Origin: Clostridia bacterium
GTDB lineage: Bacteria > Bacillota > Clostridia > Christensenellales > QALW01
Reading direction: 5' to 3'
Assembly (NCBI GenBank): GCA_045594045.1
Contig: JAZNXV010000004.1
Span: forward strand, 1,610 to 65,609
Length of the DNA stretch: 64,000 nucleotides
The translations under genes and the position numbers were made by a program. Every line of letters starts with the position of its first letter. Position 1 is the first letter of the stretch. Positions 1-11,892 of this stretch are shown one piece after another. The notes under the pieces were generated by a model, which ran no database searches, was not told the DNA's origin, and saw only the letters and a list, made by a program, of their open reading frames with translations.

Positions 1-1179
1 CACGCTCACATTTCTCAAGAGCGCTGTATCGACTGCGGCGAATGTATAAGAGTATGTCCGCACAAAGCTAAAAAGGCAGTATGCTCTTCCCTTGACTCTA
101 TGAAACGGTTCAAGTGGAAAATAGCCTTACCTGCCCCGACTCTTTACGGTCAATTTGACAATCTTGACGATGTTGACCTTGTTCTTCAAGGTTTAAAGAA
201 AATTGGGTTTGATGATGTTTTTGAGGTTTCAAAGGCGGCGGAACTGGTTTCTGCCTACACCCGCCTTTACTTAAAAACCGACGGCATTAAAAAGCCGGCT
301 ATAAGCTCGGCCTGTCCTGCAGTTATACGCTTGATAGGTTTGCGCTTTCCTTCACTTAACGACCATATAATACATATGCTTCCGCCAATGGAGGTGGCCG
401 CAAAGCTTGCGCGCAAGCGTGCTCTTGAGGCGCACCCGGAATTAAAGGCCGAAGATATAGGCATATGCTTTATATCTCCCTGCCCCGCCAAAGCAAGCTA
501 CGTGAAAAACGGCTTTGCTACGTATAAAAGCGAGGTTGACGAGGTCGTTTCAATAAGCGATATCTATTTCCTTTTGATCAGTAAAATGAAGCAAGAGGAT
601 AATATTGATGCTTTAACCGAATCCGGTATGATCGGTATCGGTTGGGCGTCTTCAGGAGGAGAAGCTTCTGCAATATTTAACGAGGATTATCTTGCGGCAG
701 ACGGTATAAGCAACGTTATCCAGGTTCTTGACCAGATAGAAAACGGCAACGTTCCGCCTCTTGAGTTTATTGAGCTTAATGCTTGCACGGGCGGTTGCGT
801 AGGCGGAGTGCTCGCCATACAAAATCCGTTTGTTGCAAAGGCAAGGCTTCAAAGAGTTCGCAGATATCTTCCCGTTTCCCAAAACTTTTTGGACAGTAAA
901 AGCGACAGTTATATTCCCGACAGTTATATTTTCAACGATTTACCAGAATATCAGCCCATATCGCGTCTTAGCAGTAATATGGCTGAATCCATGCGAATGA
1001 TGGCGGATATTCAAAGGCTAAAAGAAAGCTTGCCCGGCATTGACTGCGGTTCCTGCGGTGCTCCCACCTGCAGAGCCTTTGCCGAGGACGTTGTTAAGAA
1101 AAACGCTTGCCTTGAAGACTGTCTGATTGCACTTGACAGGCTTTCTAAAGCGGAAAGGGACAAGAACAATGACGGTTAA
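1..1179 (+). CDS. [FeFe]-hydrogenase-like Fe-S protein, putative sensory type (M2e / group-D HydS-like); 5' end lies outside the window
   Basis: Frame 1 is open from nt 1 into the listed ORF 100..1179, with a CIDCGECIRVCP 4Fe-4S ferredoxin motif at nt 25-60. H-cluster-type motifs are present but altered: SSACPAV (canonical TSCCP, first Cys replaced by Ala), SPCPAK (MPCxxK) and ELNACTGGCVGG (ExMxCxxGCxxGG). There is an extra C-terminal Cys cluster CGSCGAPTC...ACLEDC. Confidence 0.8.
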   Translation, partial: HAHISQERCIDCGECIRVCPHKAKKAVCSSLDSMKRFKWKIALPAPTLYGQFDNLDDVDLVLQGLKKIGFDDVFEVSKAAELVSAYTRLYLKTDGIKKPAISSACPAVIRLIGLRFPSLNDHIIHMLPPMEVAAKLARKRALEAHPELKAEDIGICFISPCPAKASYVKNGFATYKSEVDEVVSISDIYFLLISKMKQEDNIDALTESGMIGIGWASSGGEASAIFNEDYLAADGISNVIQVLDQIENGNVPPLEFIELNACTGGCVGGVLAIQNPFVAKARLQRVRRYLPVSQNFLDSKSDSYIPDSYIFNDLPEYQPISRLSSNMAESMRMMADIQRLKESLPGIDCGSCGAPTCRAFAEDVVKKNACLEDCLIALDRLSKAERDKNNDG

Positions 1180-1501
1180 CGAGCTTGCAAAACGCTTAAA
1201 TTTAAACCAAATAGCTGTGTCTGATGCCGAAAGAGATGTTCAAGGCGCATATATTTGCGACCTTTTAAGCTGGGTTATAGGCAGAGCAAAGGAAAATGAT
1301 GCCTGGCTCACAATAATGACTAATGTCAACGTTGTTGCCGTTGCCTCTTTGGCGGACGTTTCTTGCGTTATTTTAGCTGAAGGCGTTGCTCTTGACCAAG
1401 ACGTTATCTCTTGTGCAGAGGATAAAGGCGTAAACGTGCTTTCCTCATCCTTACCCATGTACGAGCTTGCAACAAAGCTTAACGAGTGCCTAAATGAATA
1501 A
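1169..1501 (+). CDS. DRTGG domain protein
   Basis: ATG at 1169 (MTVNELAKRL..) lies inside listed ORF 1127..1501 and overlaps the upstream stop by 11 nt. The protein is about 110 aa with ..AWLTIMTNVNVVAVASLADVSCVILAEGVALDQDVISCAEDKGVNVLSS.., typical of DRTGG modules. Confidence 0.7.
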   Translation: MTVNELAKRLNLNQIAVSDAERDVQGAYICDLLSWVIGRAKENDAWLTIMTNVNVVAVASLADVSCVILAEGVALDQDVISCAEDKGVNVLSSSLPMYELATKLNECLNE

Positions 1502-2219
1502 GTACTATTACGATTTGCATTTGCACTCCTGCCTTTCGCCCTGTGGTGATGACGACAACACACCAAACAACTTAGCAGGCTTTGCAACCCTTTGCGGATT
1601 AAATATCGTTGCGCTTACTGACCACAACACAACAAAAAACTGTCCTGCCTTTTTTGAAGCCGCAAAAAAGCACGGTTTAATTCCCGTTGCAGGTATGGAA
1701 CTAACCACAAGTGAAGATATTCACGTAGTATGCCTATTTGAAACCTTGGAGGGCGCTATGGAATTTGATAAAGAAATCGACTCCAAGCGGATAAAGATTT
1801 TAAATAAGGAGCATATCTTCGGTTGCCAACTTATTTGTGACGGTGAAGACAATATAATAGGTAAAGACGAGTATCTTTTACCTAACGGCACAACAGTTTC
1901 CATTGAAGATGCACCTGAAATAGTATCTTCCTTCGGCGGCATTTGCTATCCTGCCCATATTGACAGACAAGCAAACGGCTTAATAAATATTTTAGGTACG
2001 TTTCCAAAACAAATCGGTTTTTCCTGTTTTGAGCTCCACGAAATTCAAAAGCAGCAGGAATACGTAAAAAAATACGGGCTTGAAAGTTTAATACCCATTA
2101 TAAGCTCTGACGCTCACTATTTAACAGATATGCGCGATAAAGAAGCTTTTTTTGAGCTTGACGATGAACCTTATTCAAGTGCCTTGGTGCGAAAAAAGCT
2201 TTTTGAAAAATTAAGGTAA
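1494..2219 (+). CDS. PHP-domain metal-dependent phosphoesterase
   Basis: 241-aa ORF whose start overlaps the upstream gene by 8 nt. It has an N-terminal YYDLHLHSCLSPCGDD (HxH) and ALTDHNT, hallmarks of PHP (polymerase and histidinol phosphatase) domains. Confidence 0.8.
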   Translation: MNKYYYDLHLHSCLSPCGDDDNTPNNLAGFATLCGLNIVALTDHNTTKNCPAFFEAAKKHGLIPVAGMELTTSEDIHVVCLFETLEGAMEFDKEIDSKRIKILNKEHIFGCQLICDGEDNIIGKDEYLLPNGTTVSIEDAPEIVSSFGGICYPAHIDRQANGLINILGTFPKQIGFSCFELHEIQKQQEYVKKYGLESLIPIISSDAHYLTDMRDKEAFFELDDEPYSSALVRKKLFEKLR

Positions 2220-2247
2220 TAAGAGTGCGACTCTTACGGTGAAAAAG

Positions 2248-2796
2248 ATGAAAGAGCTTTCCTTAAATATATTGGACATTACGGAGAATTCCGTTAAAGC
2301 AGGTGCTACAATCACAGAAATTTACATTGATGAAACCGACACCTCTCTTACCATAAAAATCGTTGACGACGGTTGCGGTATGAGCGAAGAAATGGTCGCA
2401 TCGGTAACCGACCCCTTTTGCACCACTCGTACCACCCGCAAGGTTGGGTTAGGGCTGCCGTTATTTAAAATGGCGGCAGAGCAAACAGGCGGCTCCCTTA
2501 ATATAACGTCCAAGCAAGCAAAAAATCCCGATGATTCTCACGGTACTACGGTTACCGCTACGTTTAACAAAAATCATTTTGATTTTACGCCTTTGGGCAA
2601 TGTTATTGAAACTGTCTTGACCTTAATACAAGGTCATCCCAATACCGATTTTTATTTTTCGCATAAAAAGGGTGATAAAGAGGTTTCGTTAGATACCCGC
2701 CAAATGCGGCAGGTGTTAGAGGGTCTGCCTCTGAACACTTACGAGGTTATAAAATGGACCGAAGATTGCTTATTTGAGCAGTATGACGGTTTTTAA
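2248..2796 (+). CDS. Stand-alone GHKL (histidine-kinase-like) ATPase, no DHp/His domain
   Basis: ORF 2239..2796 (GTG 2239 or ATG 2248). N box LNILDITENSVKAG, G1 DDGCGM and G2 GLGLPL are present. At about 180 aa there is no phosphoacceptor His domain, which resembles SpoIIAB/RsbW-type kinases in size. Confidence 0.75.
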   Translation: MKELSLNILDITENSVKAGATITEIYIDETDTSLTIKIVDDGCGMSEEMVASVTDPFCTTRTTRKVGLGLPLFKMAAEQTGGSLNITSKQAKNPDDSHGTTVTATFNKNHFDFTPLGNVIETVLTLIQGHPNTDFYFSHKKGDKEVSLDTRQMRQVLEGLPLNTYEVIKWTEDCLFEQYDGF

Positions 2797-2836
2797 AATT
2801 ATAAAAAATGTTTATAAAACAGAAAGGATAAAAAGT

Positions 2837-3208
2837 ATGAAATCATTAGCTGAACTCCAAGCCATTAAGGACAAGATGAAGAACAAGGTTGTTCTTCGCG
2901 AAGGAACAAGTGATGTTCGTGTAGTAGTTGGTATGGCTACTTGCGGTATTGCTGCAGGCGCACGTCCCGTTCTGAACACCTTTGTAGAAGAGGTTAATTC
3001 TTCTGCACTTGCCGGTAAAGTTTCCGTTTCACAGACAGGCTGCATTGGTATTTGCCAATTTGAGCCCGTTGTTGAGGTTTTCGAAGCCGGTAAAGAAAAA
3101 GTTACTTATGTAAAAATGACACCCGAAAAAGTTAAAGAGGTTGTTGAAAAACACCTTGTAGGCGGCAAAGTTATTACCGAATACACCATTGCTGCCAATA
3201 AGGCATAA
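2837..3208 (+). CDS. Small thioredoxin-like ferredoxin-fold hydrogenase subunit (HydD-like; not a canonical NuoE)
   Basis: ATG at 2837 is preceded by aaagga; MKSLAELQAIKDK.. lies inside listed ORF 2774..3208. The protein is 123 aa and resembles the N-terminal 2Fe-2S domain of the next gene but has only 3 Cys (ATC, TGC, GIC). Confidence 0.6.
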   Translation: MKSLAELQAIKDKMKNKVVLREGTSDVRVVVGMATCGIAAGARPVLNTFVEEVNSSALAGKVSVSQTGCIGICQFEPVVEVFEAGKEKVTYVKMTPEKVKEVVEKHLVGGKVITEYTIAANKA

Positions 3209-3227
3209 TAGCGGAGGTTTTTATATT

Positions 3228-5048
3228 ATGATTAGAGCTCACGTACTTATTTGCGGCGGTACAGGTTGTACCTCCTCAGGAAGTAAAAAAATCCAAGAGG
3301 CTTTTGAGCAGAATATTATTGCTAACGGCCTTGGTGAAGAAGTAAAAGTTGTTCAAACAGGCTGCTTCGGTCTTTGTGCACTCGGTCCTGTTGTTATCGT
3401 TTATCCCGACGGTACCTTCTACAGCCGTGTTACTCCCGAAGACGTTAAAGAAATCGTTGAAGAGCATCTTTTAAAGGGTCGTGTTGTTGAACGCCTTGTA
3501 TATAATGATACAGGTGACAACGAACCTGCAATTCCCGGCAGTGTTTCCCTTAGCGATACCGCTTTCTATAAATCACAGAAGCGTATCGTGCTTCGTAACT
3601 GCGGTGTTATCGACCCCGAAAACATCGAAGAATACATCGCTATGGACGGCTATGCTGCTTTAGGCAAAGTTTTAACAGAGATGACTCCTGATGACGTTAT
3701 TAAAGTTATCACCGATTCAGGTCTTCGCGGCCGTGGTGGCGGCGGCTTCCCCACAGGTAGAAAATGGGCGCTTACCGCTCCCAACAAGGCAGACCAGAAA
3801 TACGTTGTATGTAATGCTGACGAAGGCGACCCGGGTGCTTTCATGGACCGTTCCGTTTTGGAAGGTGACCCCCACTGCCTTATCGAAGCTATGACTATTG
3901 CAGGTTATGCTATCGGTGCAACTATCGGTTACGTTTACGTTCGTGCTGAATATCCTATCGCTGTTAAGCGTCTTCAGATTGCTATTGACCAAGCAAAAGA
4001 ATACGGCTTGTTAGGTAAGAACATCTTTGGTTCAGGTTTTGACTTTGACCTTTCCATCCGTCTTGGTGCAGGTGCATTCGTTTGCGGCGAAGAAACTGCT
4101 CTTATGACATCTATCGAAGGTAAGCGCGGTGAACCTCGTCCCCGTCCTCCGTATCCTGCTATTAAGGGTCTTTACGGAAAGCCCACAGTTGAAAATAACG
4201 TTGAAACCTTTGCTAACGTTCCCCAAATCATCTTAAACGGTGCTGACTGGTTCAAGAGCATGGGTACAGAAAAATCTACCGGTACAAAGATTTTCGCTTT
4301 AGGCGGTAAAATTGAGCACACAGGTCTTGTAGAAATTCCCATGGGTACTCCCTTAAGAGAAATTATCTACAATATTGGTGGCGGTATTCCTAACGGCAAA
4401 AAGTTCAAGGCTGTTCAAACAGGCGGTCCTTCCGGCGGATGTATTCCCGCTTCCTTAATCGACATCAGTGTTGACTATGACTCTCTTACCTCCATCGGCT
4501 GTATGATGGGCTCCGGCGGTATGATTGTTATGGACGAAGACAACTGTATGGTTGATATTGCAAAGTTCTTCCTTGAGTTCATTGTTGACGAATCCTGCGG
4601 TAAGTGCACACCCTGCCGTATCGGTACACGCCGTATGCTTGAGCTTCTTACCAAGATTACTGACGGTAAGGGTGAAGACGGTGATATCGAAAAGCTTGAA
4701 AACCTTGCTAACACAATCAAGGCTTCTTCACTTTGTGGCTTAGGTCAAACTGCACCTAACCCCGTACTTTCAACAATCCGTTTCTTCCGTGACGAATACG
4801 AAGCTCACATTTATAAGAAAGAATGTCCTGCTCACTACTGCAAGGCATTTGCAAAATATACTATTGACCGTGATAAGTGTATCGGCTGCGGTCTCTGCGC
4901 AAAGAACTGCCCCGTTAACGCTATCACAAGAACTGACTATATTGCCCCCGGCAAGAAGCTTGCTGCTTTTGCTATTGACACAGATAAGTGCATCAAGTGC
5001 GGTGCATGTATCGGCAACTGCAAATTCAAGGCAATAGACGTTAAATAA
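3228..5048 (+). CDS. hydB: NuoF-like flavoprotein subunit of NAD(P)H-linked / bifurcating-type [FeFe] hydrogenase
   Basis: ATG at 3228 follows a GGAGG RBS. The protein has an N-terminal thioredoxin-like 2Fe-2S domain (CGGTGC..TGCFGLC), the FMN/NADH site GLRGRGGGGFPTGRKW, the 4Fe-4S motif SLCGLGQTAPNP, and C-terminal 2x4Fe-4S motifs CIGCGLCAKNCP and CIKCGACIGNC. Confidence 0.9.
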   Translation: MIRAHVLICGGTGCTSSGSKKIQEAFEQNIIANGLGEEVKVVQTGCFGLCALGPVVIVYPDGTFYSRVTPEDVKEIVEEHLLKGRVVERLVYNDTGDNEPAIPGSVSLSDTAFYKSQKRIVLRNCGVIDPENIEEYIAMDGYAALGKVLTEMTPDDVIKVITDSGLRGRGGGGFPTGRKWALTAPNKADQKYVVCNADEGDPGAFMDRSVLEGDPHCLIEAMTIAGYAIGATIGYVYVRAEYPIAVKRLQIAIDQAKEYGLLGKNIFGSGFDFDLSIRLGAGAFVCGEETALMTSIEGKRGEPRPRPPYPAIKGLYGKPTVENNVETFANVPQIILNGADWFKSMGTEKSTGTKIFALGGKIEHTGLVEIPMGTPLREIIYNIGGGIPNGKKFKAVQTGGPSGGCIPASLIDISVDYDSLTSIGCMMGSGGMIVMDEDNCMVDIAKFFLEFIVDESCGKCTPCRIGTRRMLELLTKITDGKGEDGDIEKLENLANTIKASSLCGLGQTAPNPVLSTIRFFRDEYEAHIYKKECPAHYCKAFAKYTIDRDKCIGCGLCAKNCPVNAITRTDYIAPGKKLAAFAIDTDKCIKCGACIGNCKFKAIDVK

Positions 5049-5069
5049 TTGGGTAGGAGGTAATATAAA

Positions 5070-6827
5070 ATGGATAAAAAGATGATTAACTTAACCATTG
5101 ACGGTATTAACGTTACCGTTGAAGAAGGCACAACCGTTCTTGAAGCTGCAAAGCAGGCAAAAATTACTATTCCTACACTTTGCTACTTAAAGGGCGTTAA
5201 CCAAATCGGTGCTTGCCGTATTTGTATGGTAGAAATTGAAGGTGCAAGAGGTCTTGCCGCTGCTTGCGTTATGCCTGTAGGCGAGGGTATGAATGTTAAA
5301 ACAAACACTCCCAAGCTTCGTCAGGTAAGAAAAGACAATCTTGGCTTGTTGCTTTCAAACCACAACAGAGAATGTACAACCTGCGTTCGTTCAGGCTCTT
5401 GCGAGCTTCAAACACTTTGTAACGAATACGGTGTTTCTGAAATCACATACGCAGGTGCAAAAACCTTCTCACCTGATTGTATTGATGACGTTTCTCCTTC
5501 AATCGTTCGCGATAACAGCAAATGTATCCATTGCCGCCGTTGTATCGCCGCTTGCCAGAACATTCAAAAAATCGGCGCAATCGGCATGAGCAAGCGTGGC
5601 TTCAACTCAACCGTTGGTGCTGCATTTAACGTTTCTTTGGCGGACAGCCCCTGCGTAAACTGCGGTCAATGTATTGAAGCTTGTCCCGTTGGCGCACTTC
5701 ACGAAAAGAGTGAAATCGACAATGTTTGGGAAGCTCTTGCAGATAAGGACAAGTTCGTTTGCATTCAGCCCGCTCCTGCTGTACGTGCTTCCTTAGGTGA
5801 AGAATTCGGTCTTCCCATCGGCACAGGCGTTACAGGCAAAATGGTTGCTTCAATGCGTCGTCTTGGTTTTGACAGAGTTTTTGATACCGATTTCGGTGCT
5901 GACCTTACCATTATGGAAGAAGGAACAGAGCTTTTAAACCGTATTAAAAACGGTGGAGTTCTTCCTATGATTACATCCTGCTCTCCCGGCTGGATTACTT
6001 ACTGTGAAAAATTCTTCCCTGAGTTTATTCCTAACCTTTCTTCCTGCAAGTCACCTCACGAAATGACAGGTGCTATGATTAAATCATACTACGCAGAGAA
6101 GATGGGCGTTGACCCCAAGAATATCTACGTTGTTTCCGTTATGCCCTGTACTGCTAAAAAGTACGAAGCACAGCGCGAAGAGCTTGTTACCAACGGCTTA
6201 AGAGACGTTGATGCTGTTCTTACCGTTCGCGAATACGCAAAGATGGTTAAAACTGCAGGTATTGACTTTGTTTCTCTTGACGACGAGGATTTTGACAGCA
6301 TGCTTGGTGAATCCACAGGTGCAGGCGTTATTTTCGGTACAACAGGCGGTGTTATGGAAGCCGCTCTTCGTACAGTTTACGAAGTAGTTACAAAGAAAGA
6401 ATTAACCGACGTTAACTTTAACGCTGTTCGTGGCTTTGACGGTATTAAGGAAGCTGAAATTGACCTTGACGGCACTATCGTAAAGGTAGCCGTTGTTCAC
6501 GGTACAGGTAATGCAGAAAAGCTTCTTAACGCTATTAAGGCAGGCGAAAAGGATTACACCTTTATCGAAGTTATGTGCTGCCCCGGCGGTTGTATCACAG
6601 GTGGCGGTCAGCCCATCGTTGATGCAAAAACTCAGATGAGCGTTAACGTTAAAGAGCTTCGTGCAAAAGTTCTTTACGGCGAAGATGCTGCAAAGGCAAA
6701 GAGAAAATCTCACGAAAATGCCGAAGTTAAGGCTGTTTATGATGAGTTCCTTGGCGAGCCCAACAGTCATAAGGCTCACGAGCTTCTTCATACAACCTAC
6801 AGCGCAAAGCCTAAATTTAGCAAATAA
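5070..6827 (+). CDS. hydA: [FeFe] hydrogenase catalytic subunit (multi-domain, group A type)
   Basis: 585 aa. It has an N-terminal plant-type 2Fe-2S domain (CYLKG..GACRICMVEI), a His-ligated cluster (HNRECTTCVRSGSCELQ) and two 4Fe-4S motifs. H-domain motifs are TSCSPGW, VMPCTAKKYE and EVMCCPGGCITGGGQP. There is a C-terminal small-subunit-like tail. Confidence 0.9.
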   Translation: MDKKMINLTIDGINVTVEEGTTVLEAAKQAKITIPTLCYLKGVNQIGACRICMVEIEGARGLAAACVMPVGEGMNVKTNTPKLRQVRKDNLGLLLSNHNRECTTCVRSGSCELQTLCNEYGVSEITYAGAKTFSPDCIDDVSPSIVRDNSKCIHCRRCIAACQNIQKIGAIGMSKRGFNSTVGAAFNVSLADSPCVNCGQCIEACPVGALHEKSEIDNVWEALADKDKFVCIQPAPAVRASLGEEFGLPIGTGVTGKMVASMRRLGFDRVFDTDFGADLTIMEEGTELLNRIKNGGVLPMITSCSPGWITYCEKFFPEFIPNLSSCKSPHEMTGAMIKSYYAEKMGVDPKNIYVVSVMPCTAKKYEAQREELVTNGLRDVDAVLTVREYAKMVKTAGIDFVSLDDEDFDSMLGESTGAGVIFGTTGGVMEAALRTVYEVVTKKELTDVNFNAVRGFDGIKEAEIDLDGTIVKVAVVHGTGNAEKLLNAIKAGEKDYTFIEVMCCPGGCITGGGQPIVDAKTQMSVNVKELRAKVLYGEDAAKAKRKSHENAEVKAVYDEFLGEPNSHKAHELLHTTYSAKPKFSK

Positions 6828-6846
6828 TAATTAAAATAATAAAAGG

Positions 6847-6875
6847 CAGAACCGAGCAATCGGTTCTGTTTTTTT
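6847..6875 (+). terminator. Rho-independent terminator of the hydrogenase operon
   Basis: 9-bp stem cagaaccga/tcggttctg with a 4-nt loop, followed by T7 (6869-6875), 20 nt after the hydA double stop. Confidence 0.8.
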
Positions 6876-7047: not shown

Positions 7048-8490
7048 ATGATTAACATTGGAAAAAACAGAGAACTCTTCGTTGACGATTATTTACTTGA
7101 CAGCGAAAAAACCACAGCAGAGAGAAGACTTAACCAACCCGTTAAGCGCGAAGCAGTTTTCACCTTTGACGCCCCTTGGGAAAGCTTTTTGAACACAGGT
7201 TATCAGAACATTGTTCGTAAGCCCGACGGCACATATTTAATGTACTATAAGTGCTGGCATCACGGCAAAGAGCCCTGGAGCGACACAGCTCGCGGTCTTC
7301 GCCACGTTGGCGTTATTGAAAGTAAAGACGGTATTAACTGGACCCGTCCTTCCCTCGACATAAACCTTATTTTCAAAAACTCCAACCTTGTTTCAACTGA
7401 CCTTAACTATGATAATTTCTTCGTTTTCTACGATACAAACCCCAACTGCCCTGAAAACGAAAGATATAAATATCTTGCGGGTGAATGGAATAACGGCCTT
7501 TACGGCGGAACGTCACCTGACGGTTTTAATTTCAAATTCCATAACAGAGATACAAAGGAAGGCAGACTTTTAAGTAACGCTGAGACCAGCTGCCACTTTG
7601 ATACACTTAATATCGCATTCTTCAAGGACGGTTTATATCACGCCTACTTCCGCGGTCTCCACAGAGGCAACGACTACTATCCTGAAGTTCACTCCGATAA
7701 CGACCGCACAATCATCCGTGATATTCGCCACGCAGTAAGTAAGGATTTCTGGCATTGGGATACTATCGAATTCCTTCAGTATGACGATGAGTACGATTAC
7801 GAAATGTACACCAACGGTATTATTCCCTATTACCGTGCTCCTCAAATCTTAACAGCACTTCCTACAAGATATTATGCCCGCGAAGGTTGGCCTACCTCCT
7901 TTGACCGTATGTATGACCCCGAAGGCAGAAAATCTCTCGGACGCAATACTTCTTTAGGTGACAGTATCTTTATGGTATCACGTGACTACGTAAATTTCCA
8001 CAGATACAACGAAGCTTTCCTTGCAATCGGTCCTGAAGGTGCTACAAACTGGCACTACGGCGATTGCTACGTTTGCCCCGACATTATTGAAACTCCCACT
8101 GCTATCAACTGCTTCGATCCTGAGCTTTCACTTTATTGCCACGAAACAACGGCAGACGGTGTAGATCATCTTTTCAGATACTCCTTGCGCATTGACGGCT
8201 TCGTTTCAATGGAATCCAACCGCGACACCAAGAAGGTTGTTACAAAGCCCTTCGTTTACGACGGAAGCGAGTTAGTTCTTAACTTCGCTACATCTGCTTT
8301 GGGCAACATTTATATAAAGATTGAGGCTACTGACGGCTCTAAAGCAATTACCTCCTGCGAAATCTTCGGTGATAAGGTTGACAGACCTATCGACTTTGTT
8401 GATGGTAGTGTGGCTGACCTTGCAGGCAAGGAAGTTGTTATGACCATTGAGCTTTGCGAGGCAAAGGTTTACTCCTTTAAATTTAACTAA
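7048..8490 (+). CDS. Uncharacterised cytoplasmic protein, tentatively a beta-propeller glycoside-hydrolase-like fold with a C-terminal beta-sandwich
   Basis: 480-aa ORF with a GGAG RBS and no signal peptide. The N-terminal pattern is ELFVDDYLLD..L.QP.K......D.PWE....Y.N......G.YLMYY.......ESKDGINWTRPSL. The C-terminal pattern is LRIDGFVS...VVTKPF..DGSELVLNFATSALGNIYIKIE...GK.VVMTIEL.EAKVYSFKF. As I recall it, this resembles GH32/43-clan-like hypothetical glycosidases. Confidence 0.45.
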   Translation: MINIGKNRELFVDDYLLDSEKTTAERRLNQPVKREAVFTFDAPWESFLNTGYQNIVRKPDGTYLMYYKCWHHGKEPWSDTARGLRHVGVIESKDGINWTRPSLDINLIFKNSNLVSTDLNYDNFFVFYDTNPNCPENERYKYLAGEWNNGLYGGTSPDGFNFKFHNRDTKEGRLLSNAETSCHFDTLNIAFFKDGLYHAYFRGLHRGNDYYPEVHSDNDRTIIRDIRHAVSKDFWHWDTIEFLQYDDEYDYEMYTNGIIPYYRAPQILTALPTRYYAREGWPTSFDRMYDPEGRKSLGRNTSLGDSIFMVSRDYVNFHRYNEAFLAIGPEGATNWHYGDCYVCPDIIETPTAINCFDPELSLYCHETTADGVDHLFRYSLRIDGFVSMESNRDTKKVVTKPFVYDGSELVLNFATSALGNIYIKIEATDGSKAITSCEIFGDKVDRPIDFVDGSVADLAGKEVVMTIELCEAKVYSFKFN

Positions 8491-8546: not shown

Positions 8547-8575
8547 TTGACCATATTTTGCAATCGTTATATAAT
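8547..8575 (+). promoter_or_regulatory. Predicted sigma-A promoter of the malic enzyme gene
   Basis: TTGACC (8547-8552), 17-nt spacer, TATAAT (8570-8575). Confidence 0.5.
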
Positions 8576-8611
8576 TATTATATAATTGCAAATCAATTTG
8601 AGGTACTTACT

Positions 8612-9784
8612 ATGGACTATGCAAAAGAATCTTTAAAAAAACACTATGAGTGGAAGGGTAAAATCGAAGTTATTGCGCGACCTGAAATATCAACCCGCCA
8701 GGACCTTTCGTTAACCTACACTCCCGGTGTAGCGCAGCCTTGCTTAGAAATACAAAAAGATATTTCAAAAAGCTTTGAGCTTACACGCCGAGCAAACCTT
8801 GTTGCCGTTATAACTGACGGAACTGCCGTTTTAGGCTTAGGTGATATTGGCGCCGAAGCAGGTATGCCCGTTATGGAAGGCAAATGTGCTCTTTTTAAAG
8901 CGTTTGCTGACGTTGACGCTTTTCCCCTTTGCATTAAAAGCAAAGACGTTGACACCATCGTAAACACTATCGCTCTAATTTCAGGCTCCTTTGGCGGAAT
9001 AAATCTTGAAGATATTTCTGCCCCCCGTTGCTTTGAAATTGAAAGAAAACTGAAAGAGGTTTGCGATATTCCCGTTTTCCACGATGACCAGCACGGCACC
9101 GCAATAGTCGTTGCCGCCGCTTTAATTAACGCCGCCAAGGTGGCGTAAAAGAAACTTGAAGATTTAACGGTAGTTATTAACGGCGCAGGCAGCGCAGGTA
9201 TCGCCATTGGCAAAATGATACTTAAATTGAATGTTAAAAATCTTATTATGTGCGATATCAACGGCACTCTCTGCAACGGCGATGATTCTCTTAACGCCTC
9301 CCAAGCAGAAATGGCAAAAGCCACTAACAAACACCGTCTAAAAGGCACACTTGCAGACGCGCTCAAATGTGCAGACGTGTTTATTGGCGTTTCTGCACCC
9401 AACGTTGTAACCAAAGAAATGATTGCTTCAATGAAGGATAAGCCTATAGTGTTCCCCATGGCAAACCCCACTCCCGAAATTATGCCTGATATTGCCCTTG
9501 AAGCAGGCGCATTTATTGTCGGTACAGGCAGAAGTGATTTTCCTAACCAAATAAACAACGTCCTTGCTTTCCCCGGGATTTTCAGAGGGGCATTAGACGC
9601 AAGGGCGCGCGACATTAACGAGGAAATGAAGTTTGCCGCCGCAAAGGCTATTGCCGATTATATTCCCGTCCAAGAGCTTTCCCGTGAAAATATTATACCA
9701 AACGCTCTTGATAAAAACGTTGCTTATGCAGTTGCCAGGGCAGTAAAAAAAGCCGCGGAAGAAACGGGTGTGGCAAGGGTGTAA
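8612..9784 (+). pseudogene. NAD(P)-dependent malic enzyme (short MaeB/YtsJ type) interrupted by one in-frame TAA at 9146-9148
   Basis: Listed ORFs 8558..9148 and 9215..9784 are in the same frame. Translation across the stop gives ..[31 protein letters not shown].., so the GxGxxG NAD-binding loop lies between the stop and the next ATG. The likely start is ATG 8612 after a tgagg RBS. Confidence 0.8.
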
Positions 9785-9820
9785 AGCTTTAATTATTATG
9801 GATTTTTCAATTTGTAGAAA

Positions 9821-9849
9821 AAGGACCTTGAAAATGTTTCAAGGTCCTT
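9821..9849. terminator. Bidirectional hairpin terminator between convergent genes
   Basis: 13-bp stem aaggaccttgaaa/tttcaaggtcctt with a 3-nt loop, flanked by A/T runs. Confidence 0.7.
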
Positions 9850-9875
9850 TATTTATGCTTTATTATATATAGGCT

Positions 9876-10976
9876 TTATATAAGCTTCATTATAACAGTT
9901 AAAATAATCAAAAATCCAAAGTTAAAAAGTGAAAACATTAAAATATATCTGCCCACTCTGTTCGGATAATGTCTTGTATATTCTCTAAAGGTAATCAGGC
10001 TTGCAAGTGATGCAATCAACGTTCCCGCGCCGCCTATGTTCACCCCCACAAGTAAATCAGTATAATTCTGTGTAAATTGGGAAAGCAAAATTGACGAAGG
10101 TACGTTGCTTATCACCTGGCAAGAAAGCACGCTTACTAAAAGAGTATCTTTTTCTAAAAGGTAAAAAAAGGTTTCTCTCACCCACTCTATTCGCGCCATA
10201 TTACCTGAAAATATAAAAAAGAAAACAAAGGTAAGAAGCAGCGGATAGTCAACGTTTGCTAAAGCTTTTCTATCTAAAAAAAGCAGTGCAGCAATAATTA
10301 CTATGAGCCCTATCTGATAAGGTATTCCCCTAAAAACTATTGCTATTGAAAGAGCGAACAAAATCAAATATATAATAGTGCGCCCTTTGGGTAATGAAAT
10401 TTTATCTTCTTTTATATGCAAAGGCTCGGCTTTAACAAACATACAGCAAACTGTTATTAAAAATATTGAAATTAAAAACGGAACAAGCATTATGCCCATA
10501 AATTCCAAATTAGGAATATTAAACTTTGTGTACAAATACAAGTTTTGTGGGTTACCAAAGGGTGTTAGCATACCGCCTAAATTAGCGGCAATATTTTGCA
10601 TAATAAAGGTAAAAGCCAAATATCCTTCTTCACCGGTAGAAGTAAGCACTAAATATCCTAAGGGCAAAAAGGTTAAAAGCGCCATATCGTTCGCAATAAA
10701 CATAGAACCTATAAAGGTAATATAAATAAGCACCAAAATACAACTGCGGGCAGTATGAAACTTTTTAACTATTTCCTTTGCCAAGGAATAGAAAAAGCCT
10801 ATATTTTTTAGTGCACCTACAACTGCTAAAACGCAAAACAAACAAGTAAGTGTTTTAAAATCAAAATAACCTAAATACTCGCTGTCCGGCGGAACAAAAA
10901 AGCAGGTTATTACTGCCGCAATAAACGCAATAAACGCAACTATATTCTGTTTTGCGAATTCAAAAATCTTTGTCAT
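9876..10976 (-). CDS. ArsB/NhaD (SLC13/CitMHS-like) family anion permease
   Basis: Polytopic membrane protein. The likely start is ATG 10976 (MTKIFEFAKQ..). Motifs include FIANDMALLTFLPLG and GGMLTPFGNPQNLYLY, typical of the ArsB/NhaD permease superfamily. Confidence 0.7.
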   Translation of the reverse strand: MTKIFEFAKQNIVAFIAFIAAVITCFFVPPDSEYLGYFDFKTLTCLFCVLAVVGALKNIGFFYSLAKEIVKKFHTARSCILVLIYITFIGSMFIANDMALLTFLPLGYLVLTSTGEEGYLAFTFIMQNIAANLGGMLTPFGNPQNLYLYTKFNIPNLEFMGIMLVPFLISIFLITVCCMFVKAEPLHIKEDKISLPKGRTIIYLILFALSIAIVFRGIPYQIGLIVIIAALLFLDRKALANVDYPLLLTFVFFFIFSGNMARIEWVRETFFYLLEKDTLLVSVLSCQVISNVPSSILLSQFTQNYTDLLVGVNIGGAGTLIASLASLITFREYTRHYPNRVGRYILMFSLFNFGFLIILTVIMKLI

Positions 10977-11009
10977 AGCAAACCTTAAAAATCTTATTTT
11001 ACAGCGACA

Positions 11010-11038
11010 ATTATAACACAAAAATTATTTGTAAGCAA
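11010..11038 (-). promoter_or_regulatory. Predicted promoter of the permease gene
   Basis: On the minus strand: TTGCTT, 17-nt spacer, TGtTATAAT (extended -10). Confidence 0.45.
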
Positions 11039-11053
11039 CCGAAAGAACAACAA

Positions 11054-11086
11054 AAAAGCAGTTATAATAAACTTACAACTGCTTTT
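11054..11086. terminator. Hairpin terminator downstream of the PqqD-peptidase gene
   Basis: Stem aaaagcagtt/aactgctttt with U-runs on both strands. Confidence 0.6.
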
Positions 11087-11142
11087 ATTTGTTTTGTTTT
11101 TTTAACGTTGTTTAACTCTTTGCTGTTCAAACAAACATACTT

Positions 11143-11892
11143 TTATATCTTATTTTTTTCCTTTTTACCTATAATTCTTAGCATTTTTCCTTTTACTCGC
11201 CCTAAAAAACGACGTACTTTTTTATATAGCATTCGCACAGGAAAAATAAAGCACCATATTTTGCTATAACACATGTAAAAGAAGTCATCTTCTTTAACGT
11301 GCTTGTTTTTACGGTAAAATTCCTTTGCAACACCTATGATTTTTCCATCGGGTATGCCATATTCAATATATTCGCAATTATCACCGCAAATATCATAGCT
11401 GTTTTCATTAACCCTTATTACTCTGTGCAGAATATACTTTTCATCACGTCTGTAAAGCGCAACATCATACCTTTTAAGCCGTTCCTTTGGCTTCACGATT
11501 ACCACATTGTCCCTGCGGTTTTTTAATAAGGGATACATACTTAACCCTACTGTTGTGCTGATAAACACGCCATCTTTATCAAGTATGTCTTCAATTTTTA
11601 CACCCGTATCAGTTTTTACGCCTTCATCAACGCCACGCAAAATACCCATTTCGTTAAAGTTTTTTATTATTTCGCCCGTATCCTTTAATGCTTTTTCGTA
11701 AGAAATATCGTACTTGTGTTTAAGCTCTGTTGCAATTTCTTCTTCAGAGAGCTTCTCTAATCTCTCCCACACAAAAGCCGCTGTTTCGTTCAACTTAATT
11801 TCGCCGCTAAACCGTTTACTTGCTTCGCCTGTGGGCACTAAAATGAATTGATTATTAACTTTTCGCAATTTTAAATCATCTATCGCGCCCAT
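11143..11892 (-). CDS. Fusion protein: N-terminal PqqD-like (RiPP recognition element-like) domain plus S24/S26 (SipW/Sec11-like, Ser-His) peptidase domain
   Basis: ATG 11892 is preceded by AAGGAG. The N-terminal part ..IKLNETAAFVWERLEKLSEEEIATELKHKYDISYEKALKDTGEIIKNFNEMGILRG fits the PqqD family pattern. The C-terminal part has VGLSMYPLL (nucleophile Ser) and YILHRVIRV (His as in ER-type S26B). There is no N-terminal TM anchor, and the C-terminus is a basic, hydrophobic tail. Confidence 0.65.
   Translation of the reverse strand: MGAIDDLKLRKVNNQFILVPTGEASKRFSGEIKLNETAAFVWERLEKLSEEEIATELKHKYDISYEKALKDTGEIIKNFNEMGILRGVDEGVKTDTGVKIEDILDKDGVFISTTVGLSMYPLLKNRRDNVVIVKPKERLKRYDVALYRRDEKYILHRVIRVNENSYDICGDNCEYIEYGIPDGKIIGVAKEFYRKNKHVKEDDFFYMCYSKIWCFIFPVRMLYKKVRRFLGRVKGKMLRIIGKKEKNKI

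Follow-up and report, generated by a model that had tools for sequence, protein, structure and literature searches.

A six-gene accessory cassette of putative sensory-hydrogenase signalling within an electron-bifurcating-type [FeFe] hydrogenase operon of gut Clostridia

In gut Clostridia, a very widely conserved cassette of six accessory genes is embedded among the genes of an energy-conserving hydrogenase. Its products are DRTGG1, a SpoIIAB/RsbW-like serine kinase, HydS, DRTGG2, a PHP phosphoesterase and a GHKL ATPase. It probably reports the level of available hydrogen or reducing power to the hydrogenase, and would constitute a new form of putative sensory-hydrogenase signalling. In the window (the whole stretch of 64,000 nucleotides that was analysed), positions 1-6874 appear to hold the last seven of the ten genes in an operon that encodes an Acetobacterium woodii-type, NuoEF-containing (electron-bifurcating type) [FeFe] hydrogenase, HydABC(D); we hold this assignment, jointly with the mechanism proposed below, as a tentative best explanation somewhat short of an even chance. 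No paper assigning the cassette a function was found in the searchable literature, in agreement with the original prediction that its DRTGG-PHP-GHKL trio had no assigned biochemical function.

The operon and its conservation

All features lie on the forward strand. The four genes flagged earlier within positions 1-2796 are all present there, and Pfam profile matches uphold their identities: a hydS-like gene for a group D (M2e-type) putative sensory [FeFe] hydrogenase (1-1179); DRTGG2, for a single-domain DRTGG protein of 110 aa (1169-1501); a gene for a PHP-family metal-dependent phosphoesterase of 241 aa (1494-2219); and a gene for a stand-alone GHKL ATPase of 182 aa (2248-2796, with an alternative GTG start at 2239). 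Their tight packing was confirmed on the sequence: hydS and DRTGG2 overlap by 11 nt (1169-1179), DRTGG2 and PHP by 8 nt (1494-1501), and the gap from PHP to GHKL is 19 or 28 nt, depending on whether GHKL starts at 2239 or 2248. Three genes follow. The product of hydD (2837-3208), a small protein of the thioredoxin-like [2Fe-2S] type (123 aa; PF01257, E 7e-7), is similar to the N-terminal domain found in HoxF, NfnB and HydB; hydB (3228-5048) encodes the NuoF-type flavoprotein subunit of a bifurcating-type hydrogenase, with Complex1_51K, NADH_4Fe-4S, N-terminal 2Fe-2S_thioredx and C-terminal Fer4 domains (nuoF_fam, 515 bits); and hydA (5070-6827) encodes the catalytic group A [FeFe] hydrogenase, which scores 910 bits against NF040763 (NADH-dependent [FeFe] hydrogenase; cut-off 765). 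HydA also scores 784 bits against entry 7Q4V ('Iron hydrogenase HydA1' chain), which we take to be the A. woodii HydABC structure, and the TSCSPGW motif is common to both. The operon is closed by an intrinsic terminator directly 3' of hydA (6841-6874; a 15-bp stem, then a T run), the only strong one; the remaining terminator-like matches are 5-7 bp stems within genes, in a number equal to that expected from shuffling.

Conservation was examined in two sets, 80 related species loci and a divergent metagenome sample, with denominators that vary by gene (38-71 in the divergent set). The order HydC, DRTGG1, SpoIIAB-like kinase, HydS, DRTGG2, PHP, GHKL, HydD, HydB, HydA occurs in 80/80 related species, as far as contigs reach, so the arrangement is not due to chance. 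The window thus holds HydS, DRTGG2, PHP and the HydA, HydB, HydD and GHKL genes of the A. woodii-type operon, while HydC, outside it, is placed by synteny, and so, just upstream of the window, are the predicted DRTGG1 and SpoIIAB/RsbW-like kinase genes. Because the operon begins upstream, the cassette as first described from the window was incomplete, and the second DRTGG gene and the anti-sigma-type serine kinase were therefore missed.

Part of this arrangement has been described before. The five-gene cluster of A. woodii, hydC-hydE-hydD-hydB-hydA, carries directly 5' of hydD-hydB-hydA a stand-alone gene for an 'ATP-binding domain of histidine kinases' (Poehlein et al. 2012, PMC3315566), as does the operon here; the match of GHKL to this HydE, by description and operon position, means that this part has been known since 2012, whereas hydS, DRTGG and PHP genes are not among the five described in that paper. 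Variant loci with HydC between PHP and GHKL reproduce the published order, which is exactly hydC-GHKL-hydD-hydB-hydA in L045, L057, L059, L070 and L160.

The cassette is less uniform in the divergent sample, where the DRTGG-PHP pair is the tightest: DRTGG2 stands directly 5' of PHP in 63/71 divergent and 79/79 related loci. GHKL follows PHP in 45/64 and 70/74 loci, respectively (overlapping it by 4 nt in L001), and in 13/64 divergent loci the first 3 kb downstream of PHP contain no GHKL gene. HydD follows GHKL wherever HydB follows; 16 of 38 divergent loci have no HydB (NuoF-type) gene within reach. HydS, found in 35/51 divergent loci, is frequent, not obligatory. Co-conservation of DRTGG-PHP-GHKL with each other and with sensor-type hydrogenases, the check proposed at the outset, thus holds in 80/80 related species and frequently in the divergent set. 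The cassette also adjoins NuoEF-type enzymes other than hydrogenases: a Stn/Nfn-like enzyme in L157 and L159, where the kinase is fused to CBS domains and HydS is absent. In L154 and L162 it comes after nuoLMN-like genes. Across the 160 loci, neither a transcription factor nor a sigma factor is conserved beside the cassette.

A putative group D sensory hydrogenase

Gene 1 is cut by the window start. Its full-length form, P0121 (100% identical), has 427 aa, and therefore 35 residues are absent from the gene in the window. Pfam matches are Fer4, Fe_hyd_lg_C (E 5e-28) and PF04060 FeS (E 3e-12), while NCBIfam matches all fall below their cut-offs. All three H-cluster Cys motifs are present, SSACP at nt 304-318, SPCPAK at 475-492 and ELNACTGGCVGG at 772-807, as is a C-terminal Cx2Cx4Cx16C (nt 1045-1122; aa 384-409 of P0121); the N-terminal [4Fe-4S] motifs of P0121 are CTGCTTCLRRCP and CIDCGECIRVCP, the window holding the second only. 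The proton-relay position (equivalent to CpI C299) is Ala instead of Cys, and the M353 position is Ser. Among 115 HydS orthologues the relay Cys is kept in none and the C-terminal cluster motif in 111. The Pfam profile search gave no PAS domain.

Group D (M2e) enzymes are defined by a non-conserved relay Cys (CpI C299) and a hydroxyl residue at the M353 position (PMC8163306). Judged by its motifs against this description, gene 1 would be a putative sensory [FeFe] hydrogenase of that type, and the architecture assigned to it in the original prediction agrees with the account of TamHydS of Thermoanaerobacter mathranii (Land et al. 2020, PMC8163306). The likeness, drawn from the published description and not from sequence, comprises two N-terminal [4Fe-4S] motifs, an H-domain that lacks the relay Cys and has a hydroxyl residue at the M353 position, the C-terminal Cx2Cx4Cx16C, the lack of a PAS domain, and a gene encoded with a multimeric group A hydrogenase beside a histidine kinase-like ATPase. 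The two differ at the M497 position (Asn here, Leu in TamHydS), which is poorly conserved according to the same paper; that paper mentions an AraC regulator and not DRTGG or PHP genes, whereas no AraC gene is conserved around the cassette here. H2 sensing in vivo is only putative for the group D family itself, and the literature, which notes the flanking kinase-like ATPase, poses the signal transduction of group D HydS as a question to solve.

Group C sensory systems (R. albus HydS; Thermoanaerobacterium HfsB with the PP2C phosphatase HfsC) likewise combine a low-activity hydrogenase paralogue with kinase- and phosphatase-type genes beside a catalytic hydrogenase, but the operon here has no PAS domain and no PP2C, and has DRTGG, PHP and stand-alone GHKL proteins instead. 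A group C-type sensory system adjoins the cassette in L085 and L093.

DRTGG proteins, kinase, phosphoesterase and ATPase

DRTGG2 matches PF07085 (E 1e-7), and its AF2 model (pLDDT 95.7) has the AF1212 DRTGG domain as best fold match (TM 0.82), with the HPr kinase N-terminal domain and the DRTGG domain in the regulatory region of a CBS-pyrophosphatase as its other closest structures; the top 50 fold matches are DRTGG and HPrK N-terminal folds only, with no STAS among them. Residues Y28, D31-L-L-S34, W46, T48 and N54 are invariant. The same fold (TM 0.73) is attached to phosphoryl-handling enzymes in the CBS-DRTGG-CBS insert of family II pyrophosphatases and at the N terminus of HPr kinase/phosphorylase, and CBS domains also turn up in the cassette system. 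In contrast to these cis-regulatory domains, the DRTGG proteins here are free-standing, as two specialised paralogues near a GHKL kinase and a PHP enzyme. A DRTGG gene always stands 5' of the gene of its enzyme partner, the order in which rsbV stands 5' of rsbW. One DRTGG-PHP fusion (P0297) was found, which suggests that DRTGG is a subunit and not a substrate.

The kinase is directly upstream of hydS in 65/65 related loci with room for it, and present in 37/46 divergent loci. It is closest to SpoIIAB and RsbW (best PDB match SpoIIAB, 1.6e-6), with invariant N, G1 and G2 motifs. In the partner-switching modules SpoIIAA/SpoIIAB/SpoIIE and RsbV/RsbW/RsbU, as in the relatives studied here, such a kinase gene directly follows the gene of a small single-domain protein, with a phosphoesterase gene in the same operon. 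The cassette differs in that the small protein is DRTGG and not STAS, the phosphoesterase PHP and not PP2C, and in that no sigma factor or other known output accompanies it; the kinase, moreover, lies outside the window. PHP stands in the place of PP2C, a PP2C gene being nearby in only 6 divergent loci. The original remark that no receiver, STAS, sigma factor or DNA-binding partner is visible in the window accordingly stands in part: the invisibility of a partner-switch component is an effect of the window cut, since relatives have the SpoIIAB/RsbW-type kinase upstream.

The PHP protein (PF02811, E 9e-11) belongs to a distinct small subfamily, in which 337 clusters at 50% identity reach E<=1e-30. 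All PHP-type metal ligands (HxH, DH, E, H, H, DxH) are present, and two alignments, one of 40 and one of 20 diverse members, show D7, H9, H11, D43, H44, E69, H77, H155, D206 and H208 as invariant, together with Cys17. Among proteins of solved structure, those nearest to it are EndoQ (E 5e-13), a TrpH-like phosphoesterase (3e-9) and the 5'-3' exoribonuclease RNase AM (9e-9); by sequence comparison, PHP is closest to nucleic-acid or nucleotide phosphoesterases and not to known protein phosphatases.

In GHKL, the Pfam search found HATPase_c alone (E 3e-14), with no HisKA/DHp domain, and its C-terminal 83 aa are without a match even at E 10. The N box (D10/N14), G1 (D40xGxG44) and G2 (G67xG69) are conserved at >=95%. 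With neither a phospho-accepting His of a DHp/HisKA domain nor, anywhere in the operon, a receiver domain, GHKL does not match the pattern of a two-component histidine kinase. Its nucleotide-binding core is 34% identical to branched-chain ketoacid dehydrogenase kinase (83 columns aligned). The two-domain AF2 model (pLDDT 89.7) has the N-terminal ATPases of MutL, PMS2 and TopoVI-B as best Foldseek matches; TMq to GHL ATPases (MutL/TopoVI-B/GyrB type) is 0.55-0.62 over ~185 columns, but with an rmsd of 4-6 A and a second domain of only ~60 aa. As modelled, the whole protein is nearest to MutL/TopoVI-B-type ATPases, more than to kinases.

How the cassette may act

In the explanation that we tentatively favour, HydS would bind H2 or equilibrate with the ferredoxin/NADH pool, and its C-terminal [4Fe-4S] cluster would change redox state as a result. 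Two pairs, DRTGG1-kinase and the co-translated DRTGG2-PHP, would read this state through protein contact, the two DRTGG paralogues being dedicated partners or regulatory subunits of the enzymes encoded downstream of each; one of them may also accept a phosphoryl group, on the Ser that is invariant in the D-[LM]-[LM]-S motif. The SpoIIAB-like kinase and the PHP phosphoesterase would set opposing phosphorylation states, and GHKL (HydE), encoded between PHP and HydD/HydB, would relay the result post-translationally to the NuoEF-type (HydB/C/D) module, with no transcription factor. HydS would be an exchangeable input, because CBS domains take its place in some relatives. In favour of this explanation are the constant gene order and the overlapping reading frames in the related species, the invariant sites of the kinase and of PHP, the sensory-type features of HydS, and the lack of a conserved transcription or sigma factor beside the cassette. 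Against it are a DRTGG fold other than STAS, a PHP subfamily nearer to EndoQ, TrpH and RNase AM than to protein phosphatases, a GHKL that lacks a DHp domain and, as modelled, is more like MutL-type ATPases than like kinases, the DRTGG2-PHP pairs that stand alone in 9 divergent loci, and the divergent loci with no GHKL or HydB gene in the vicinity.

The original prediction was of a self-contained three-gene switch driven by HydS, with GHKL as protein kinase, PHP as the opposing protein phosphatase and DRTGG2 as their common target, which we now consider unlikely. Its co-conserved trio stands, including as an isolated trio in L113, L127, L138 and L140; the ATP-binding motifs of GHKL are intact, Ser34 and Tyr28 of DRTGG2 are invariant, and the ketoacid dehydrogenase kinase with which its nucleotide-binding core aligns is a GHKL serine kinase regulating a redox complex. 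Like the mitochondrial-type kinases (BCKDK/PDK) with their phosphatases, a GHKL without a His-phosphotransfer domain would here control a multi-subunit redox enzyme post-translationally, an analogy only, and the N-terminal four-helix domain of BCKDK is absent. The cassette is larger than the trio, however, and minimal modules of DRTGG1, SpoIIAB-like kinase and PHP without GHKL (L146, L154, L162) make the upstream kinase the more likely member of any kinase/phosphatase pair; DRTGG2-PHP pairs without GHKL also occur. The simple reading is weakened further by a DRTGG fold unrelated to STAS, a PHP near nucleases and nucleotidases, a MutL-like GHKL that has no DHp or His domain, and the fusion P0297.

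Nucleotide or RNA control is rather improbable. PHP would hydrolyse a nucleotide signal or RNA (pAp, oligoribonucleotides, a cyclic or dinucleotide messenger, or the operon transcript), the DRTGG proteins would be nucleotide-responsive regulatory subunits as in CBS-DRTGG pyrophosphatases, and GHKL would be an ATP-driven switch, with no protein phosphorylation by PHP or GHKL. The nearest relatives of PHP and DRTGG2, the MutL-like fold of GHKL and the CBS domains (which bind adenosyl ligands) fused to the kinase are consistent with this, but the SpoIIAB-like kinase, in 65/65 related and 37/46 divergent loci, argues for protein phosphorylation somewhere in the system, and no nucleotide cyclase or synthetase is conserved among the neighbouring genes of the loci examined.

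A role in assembly or quality control is improbable to a similar degree. GHKL (HydE) would be a MutL/Hsp90-like ATP-dependent clamp that, with the DRTGG proteins and PHP, assembles or repairs the multi-cluster HydABC, and HydS a scaffold or low-activity paralogue, not a sensor. The A. woodii protein is absent from the purified enzyme and, according to Poehlein et al. (2012, PMC3315566), 'may be involved in assembly or signalling'; GHKL has a two-domain fold like that of MutL and TopoVI-B, and the genes are tightly embedded among the structural genes. Yet none of the cassette genes accompanies the secondary HydABC clusters of the same loci (e.g. L086, L092, L093, L150), the module stands apart from any hydrogenase in L106, L128, L144 and L147, and an anti-sigma-type kinase with a sensory-type H-cluster environment is typical of signalling. 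That HydS is an ordinary extra hydrogenase beside unrelated housekeeping genes is very unlikely: DRTGG2-PHP pairs do occur in unrelated contexts with no GHKL-type gene nearby (9 divergent loci), but the order identical in all related species, the overlapping reading frames, the recurrence beside different NuoEF-type enzymes and the absence of the relay Cys from all 115 HydS orthologues count against it.

Beyond the favoured signalling explanation lies a broader and more doubtful possibility, that the cassette may be an undescribed class of partner-switch-like phospho-signalling. Free-standing DRTGG proteins would replace STAS and PHP would replace PP2C; the anti-sigma-type kinase and a MutL-like mini-GHKL would act directly and post-translationally on NuoEF-type electron-bifurcating enzymes (hydrogenase, Stn/Nfn-like, complex-I-like), under exchangeable sensors (group D HydS for H2, CBS domains for nucleotides). 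If this is true, the partner-switch-like cassette would supply the signal-transduction route that is missing for group D sensory hydrogenases.

A hydrogenase operon with an embedded accessory cassette

Seven co-directional genes fill positions 1-6827 of the window (+ strand), according to a reading of the sequence and an ORF listing. A HydS-like gene, open at the window start (1-1179; Pfam Fer4, Fe_hyd_lg_C at E 5e-28, and PF04060 FeS at E 3e-12), is followed by a DRTGG gene, here termed DRTGG2 (1169-1501; Pfam DRTGG, E 1e-7), a PHP gene (1494-2219; Pfam PHP, E 9e-11), and a GHKL ATPase gene (2248-2796; Pfam HATPase_c, E 3e-14, without HisKA); next come, by Pfam/NCBIfam profiles, hydD, encoding a small thioredoxin-like 2Fe-2S protein (2837-3208), the NuoF-type hydB (3228-5048), and hydA, encoding a group A HydA (5070-6827; NF040763, 910 bits, cut-off 765). 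The sole strong terminator, with a 15-bp stem, lies at 6841-6874. For positions 1-2796 the original prediction is confirmed as an observation: its four gene identities agree with the Pfam/NCBIfam profiles, its overlaps of 11 and 8 nt and its gap of 19/28 nt are those of the sequence, and all the motifs that it had read in gene 1 were found (SSACP at nt 304-318, SPCPAK at 475-492, and ELNACTGGCVGG at 772-807), as was the C-terminal cysteine cluster (Cx2Cx4Cx16C, nt 1045-1122). Directly 3' of the terminator lies a 480-aa ORF (7048-8490, +) without a Pfam family at E<=1e-5, and farther on a malic enzyme gene is divided between two ORFs (+ strand), one with the N-terminal domain PF00390 (8558-9148) and one with the NAD-binding PF03949 from profile position 60 (9215-9784), a pattern suggestive of a frameshift, a pseudogene, or misassembly.

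The complete gene 1 product is the database protein P0121 (427 aa, 100% identical), so that the window lacks its first 35 residues and, with them, the first [4Fe-4S] motif. The complete operon is seen in a Ruminococcaceae MAG, whose GHKL protein is 69% identical to that of the window; it encodes, in order, HydC (NuoE-type), a DRTGG protein of 118 aa, a HATPase_c_2 protein of 141 aa, a HydS-like protein of 419 aa, a DRTGG protein of 108 aa, PHP, a HATPase_c protein, a small 2Fe-2S protein, HydB, and HydA. The HATPase_c_2 protein upstream of HydS is nearest to SpoIIAB (anti-sigma F factor; E 1.6e-6, full-length alignment) and RsbW, and is referred to below as the SpoIIAB-like kinase, with DRTGG1 as the DRTGG paralogue next to it. 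Synteny with relatives suggests the same upstream genes for the window's own contig. The window would thus carry the downstream portion of an operon of ten genes, where six accessory genes form a cassette set within what is probably a HydABCD(E) operon of the A. woodii type. In A. woodii the order is hydC-hydE-hydD-hydB-hydA (Poehlein et al. 2012, PMC3315566), HydE being a stand-alone GHKL protein to which that of the window corresponds by description and operon position. HydABCDE is conserved throughout Acetobacterium.

Compared with the HydA1 chain in PDB entry 7Q4V, presumably the A. woodii HydABC structure, the window HydA reaches 784 bits. Its TSCSPGW motif (5973-5993; TSCCPGW in CpI), with Ser aligned with the second Cys, is common to that HydA1 chain, and its L3 motif EVMCCPGGC (6567-6602) holds an extra Cys that is absent from the chain. 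HydD contains just three Cys, in ATCG and TGCIGIC (CGGTGC...GCFGLC in the homologous N-terminal domain of HydB), so a complete [2Fe-2S] site is doubtful, which fits the published remark that A. woodii HydD is without a cofactor site (PMC3315566).

Co-conservation and modularity of the cassette

The PHP subfamily comprises 337 clusters at 50% identity (E<=1e-30). A genome scan with a PHP alignment as query gave matches in no fewer than 597 species representatives. The 80 nearest of them, MAGs of Oscillospirales without exception, were kept, and the ORFs of their loci were searched with the proteins of the window and of L001, one of the relatives' loci (L numbers denote such loci below). Gene order is identical in every one of these 80 loci as far as contigs extend, with DRTGG2 directly 5' of PHP (79/79), HydS upstream (73/73), the SpoIIAB-like kinase and DRTGG1 (65/65), and HydD and HydB downstream (47/47); GHKL lies directly 3' of PHP in 70 of 74, and in the remaining four HydC stands between them (PHP-HydC-GHKL-HydD-HydB-HydA). 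Because that scan covered the 80 closest species, a second one, queried with remote PHP representatives, was run on metagenomes to reach other lineages, its loci being searched with HMMs from the first set. In this divergent set DRTGG2 directly precedes PHP in 63 of 71 loci (and is nearby in 5 more), GHKL directly follows it in 45 of 64 (and within 3 kb in 6 more), the kinase and DRTGG1 are present in 37 of 46, and HydB lies downstream in 21 of 38. From the counts in both sets, the DRTGG-PHP-GHKL trio flagged at the outset is a real co-conserved unit, and its tightest core is DRTGG-PHP. The proposed co-conservation with sensor-type hydrogenases stands in part: the tie of the trio to HydS and to the hydrogenase is frequent but not obligatory (HydS is upstream in 35 of 51 divergent loci). 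Database searches with the HydS-like and GHKL proteins each gave at least 8000 matches, and the locus type is very common.

The cassette is modular, and it accompanies NuoEF-type enzymes, including ones beyond hydrogenases. Three loci (L146, L154, and L162) hold solely DRTGG1, the SpoIIAB-like kinase, and PHP, and in two of them this minimal module directly follows three NuoL/M/N-type antiporter-like genes (L162, 3807-10759; L154, 1889-8948), so that it forms the last part of a complex-I-like operon. The HydS component is not always there: L088 and L091 are without it and keep all other genes, and two further HydS-less loci encode a SpoIIAB-like kinase fused to an N-terminal CBS pair (L157, 54-995; L159, 5945-6970). 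The order in L159 is HydC-HydD-HydB-DRTGG1-[CBS-CBS-kinase]-DRTGG2-PHP-GHKL, followed by a 1082-aa Fer2_4 + Pyr_redox_2 + Fer4 protein (8571-11819) that is a Stn/Nfn-like NuoEF-dependent enzyme. DRTGG2-PHP alone occurs in nine loci, the order PHP-DRTGG2-GHKL in L113 and L127, and the cassette through GHKL, with no hydD, hydB, or hydA behind it, in L106, L128, L144, and L147; since PHP and GHKL stay together in these last four, the view of GHKL as part of the structural hydC-hydE-hydD-hydB-hydA unit alone, outside the sensor block, has been softened. Secondary HydABC clusters within these loci have none of the accessory genes.

An apparent DRTGG-PHP fusion of 373 aa (database protein P0297) comes from one 5.8-kb metagenome contig; with a single-member cluster and weak Pfam scores it is weak evidence for such a fusion, and it could also be the product of a sequencing frameshift, given the short overlap that these genes usually have. 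Across 160 loci, flanks of 4 kb contained no conserved transcription factor or sigma factor; in a few loci of the divergent set, HK/RR genes and a PP2C gene are placed divergently. SpoIIE-type PP2C and PAS/HK/receiver-type genes stand beside the cassette in L085 (16105-19190) and L093 (16132-19187) (- strand), and such genes are likewise upstream in L083, L084, L091, and L095; those of L085 and L093 are joined by another, weaker HydS-like gene, in a set that resembles group C sensory systems.

Motifs and folds of the accessory proteins

Among 115 HydS orthologues, none has the relay Cys (A, F, Y, L, and others are there instead), Ser or Thr stands at the M353 position, and Cx2Cx4Cx16C is kept in 111; these features match the published definition (PMC8163306) of the M2e/group D type to which gene 1 had been assigned.

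The N, G1, and G2 boxes of the GHKL ATPase are at least 95% conserved, and by sequence its nearest relatives are histidine-kinase CA domains. Its model (pLDDT 89.7) pairs a Bergerat domain with an alpha/beta domain of 60 aa; taken whole, it best matches the N-terminal ATPases of MutL, PMS2, and TopoVI-B (TMq 0.55-0.62), and kinase CA domains and BCKDK align with its first 85-110 columns only. Just past the ATP-binding domain, a stretch modelled as a loop, H-F-D-F-T-P-L-G (residues 110-117, window 2575-2598; D112 and G117 at least 95% and H110 and P115 at least 80% conserved), is spaced like the histidine-kinase H-box H-x-x-x-T-P-L. The C-terminal domain, including this H110-x-D-x-T-P-L stretch, matches no Pfam family, so the H-box likeness remains an idea only.

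The metal ligands of PHP are invariant in two diverse alignments, as is Cys17 in the stretch HSCLSPCG (residues 13-18, window 1530-1547), directly after the HxH metal motif. TrpH-type PHP enzymes have SDG in place of this Cys stretch, and a thiolate at the metal site beside a redox sensor could matter. Among solved structures, profiles place PHP closest to EndoQ (5e-13), followed by a TrpH-like phosphoesterase (3e-9) and RNase AM (9e-9); a PHP-type protein tyrosine phosphatase was rejected, neither CpsB nor YwqE being among the PDB profile matches up to E=1. The DRTGG2 model, a confident one (pLDDT 95.7), matches the AF1212 DRTGG domain (TM 0.82), the N-terminal domain of HPr kinase, and the DRTGG domain in the regulatory region of a CBS-pyrophosphatase; a cryptic STAS fold was also considered and rejected, with no STAS among the 50 best Foldseek matches. 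The motif D-[LM]-[LM]-S is invariant in DRTGG1 and DRTGG2.

Candidate mechanisms and significance

Two parts of the system, group D HydS and HydE, are already named in the literature. TamHydS lies upstream of a trimeric bifurcating hydrogenase, flanked by an HK-like ATPase and an AraC regulator, and signal transduction by group D sensory hydrogenases has been posed as a question (Land et al. 2020, PMC8163306); a later listing still gives group D no defined function (Greening et al. 2024). To the extent that the literature could be searched, the full partner set, its modularity, the non-hydrogenase NuoEF association, and the CBS-bearing HydS-less variants are undescribed; we found there no relevant publication tying DRTGG or PHP to hydrogenases and, as originally supposed, no assigned function for the trio. 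We rate the cassette as a variant of sensory-hydrogenase-linked signalling.

We tentatively hypothesize, at slightly less than even chances, that HydS would be the input of a phosphorylation-based device in which the SpoIIAB-like kinase opposes the PHP enzyme; DRTGG1 and DRTGG2 would be dedicated partners of kinase and PHP, one of them possibly the phospho-acceptor, and GHKL (HydE) would relay the phosphorylation state to the HydB/C/D module, no transcription factor being involved. The simpler scheme of the original prediction, with GHKL as kinase, PHP as phosphatase, and DRTGG as target, appears unlikely given the minimal kinase-containing modules without the flagged GHKL, the MutL-like fold of GHKL, the nuclease-like affinities of PHP, and the fold of DRTGG, which is not that of STAS. 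Control through nucleotides or RNA and a role in assembly are each somewhat less probable still, and a mere neighbourhood of genes is very improbable.

Electron-bifurcating HydABC hydrogenases govern H2 and redox balance in gut and rumen Clostridia, acetogens, and biofuel strains. The complete conserved partner set is now defined (two DRTGG proteins, a SpoIIAB-like kinase, a PHP phosphoesterase, and the GHKL ATPase, or HydE). It is found in some 600 species representatives or more, and also behind NuoEF-type modules beyond hydrogenases; this wide spread and association make the group D signalling question directly testable. If control is post-translational, it would represent a new mode of regulating flavin-based electron bifurcation: the mechanism would be unsurprising in principle, yet it opens to experiment a question that had been explicitly left open.
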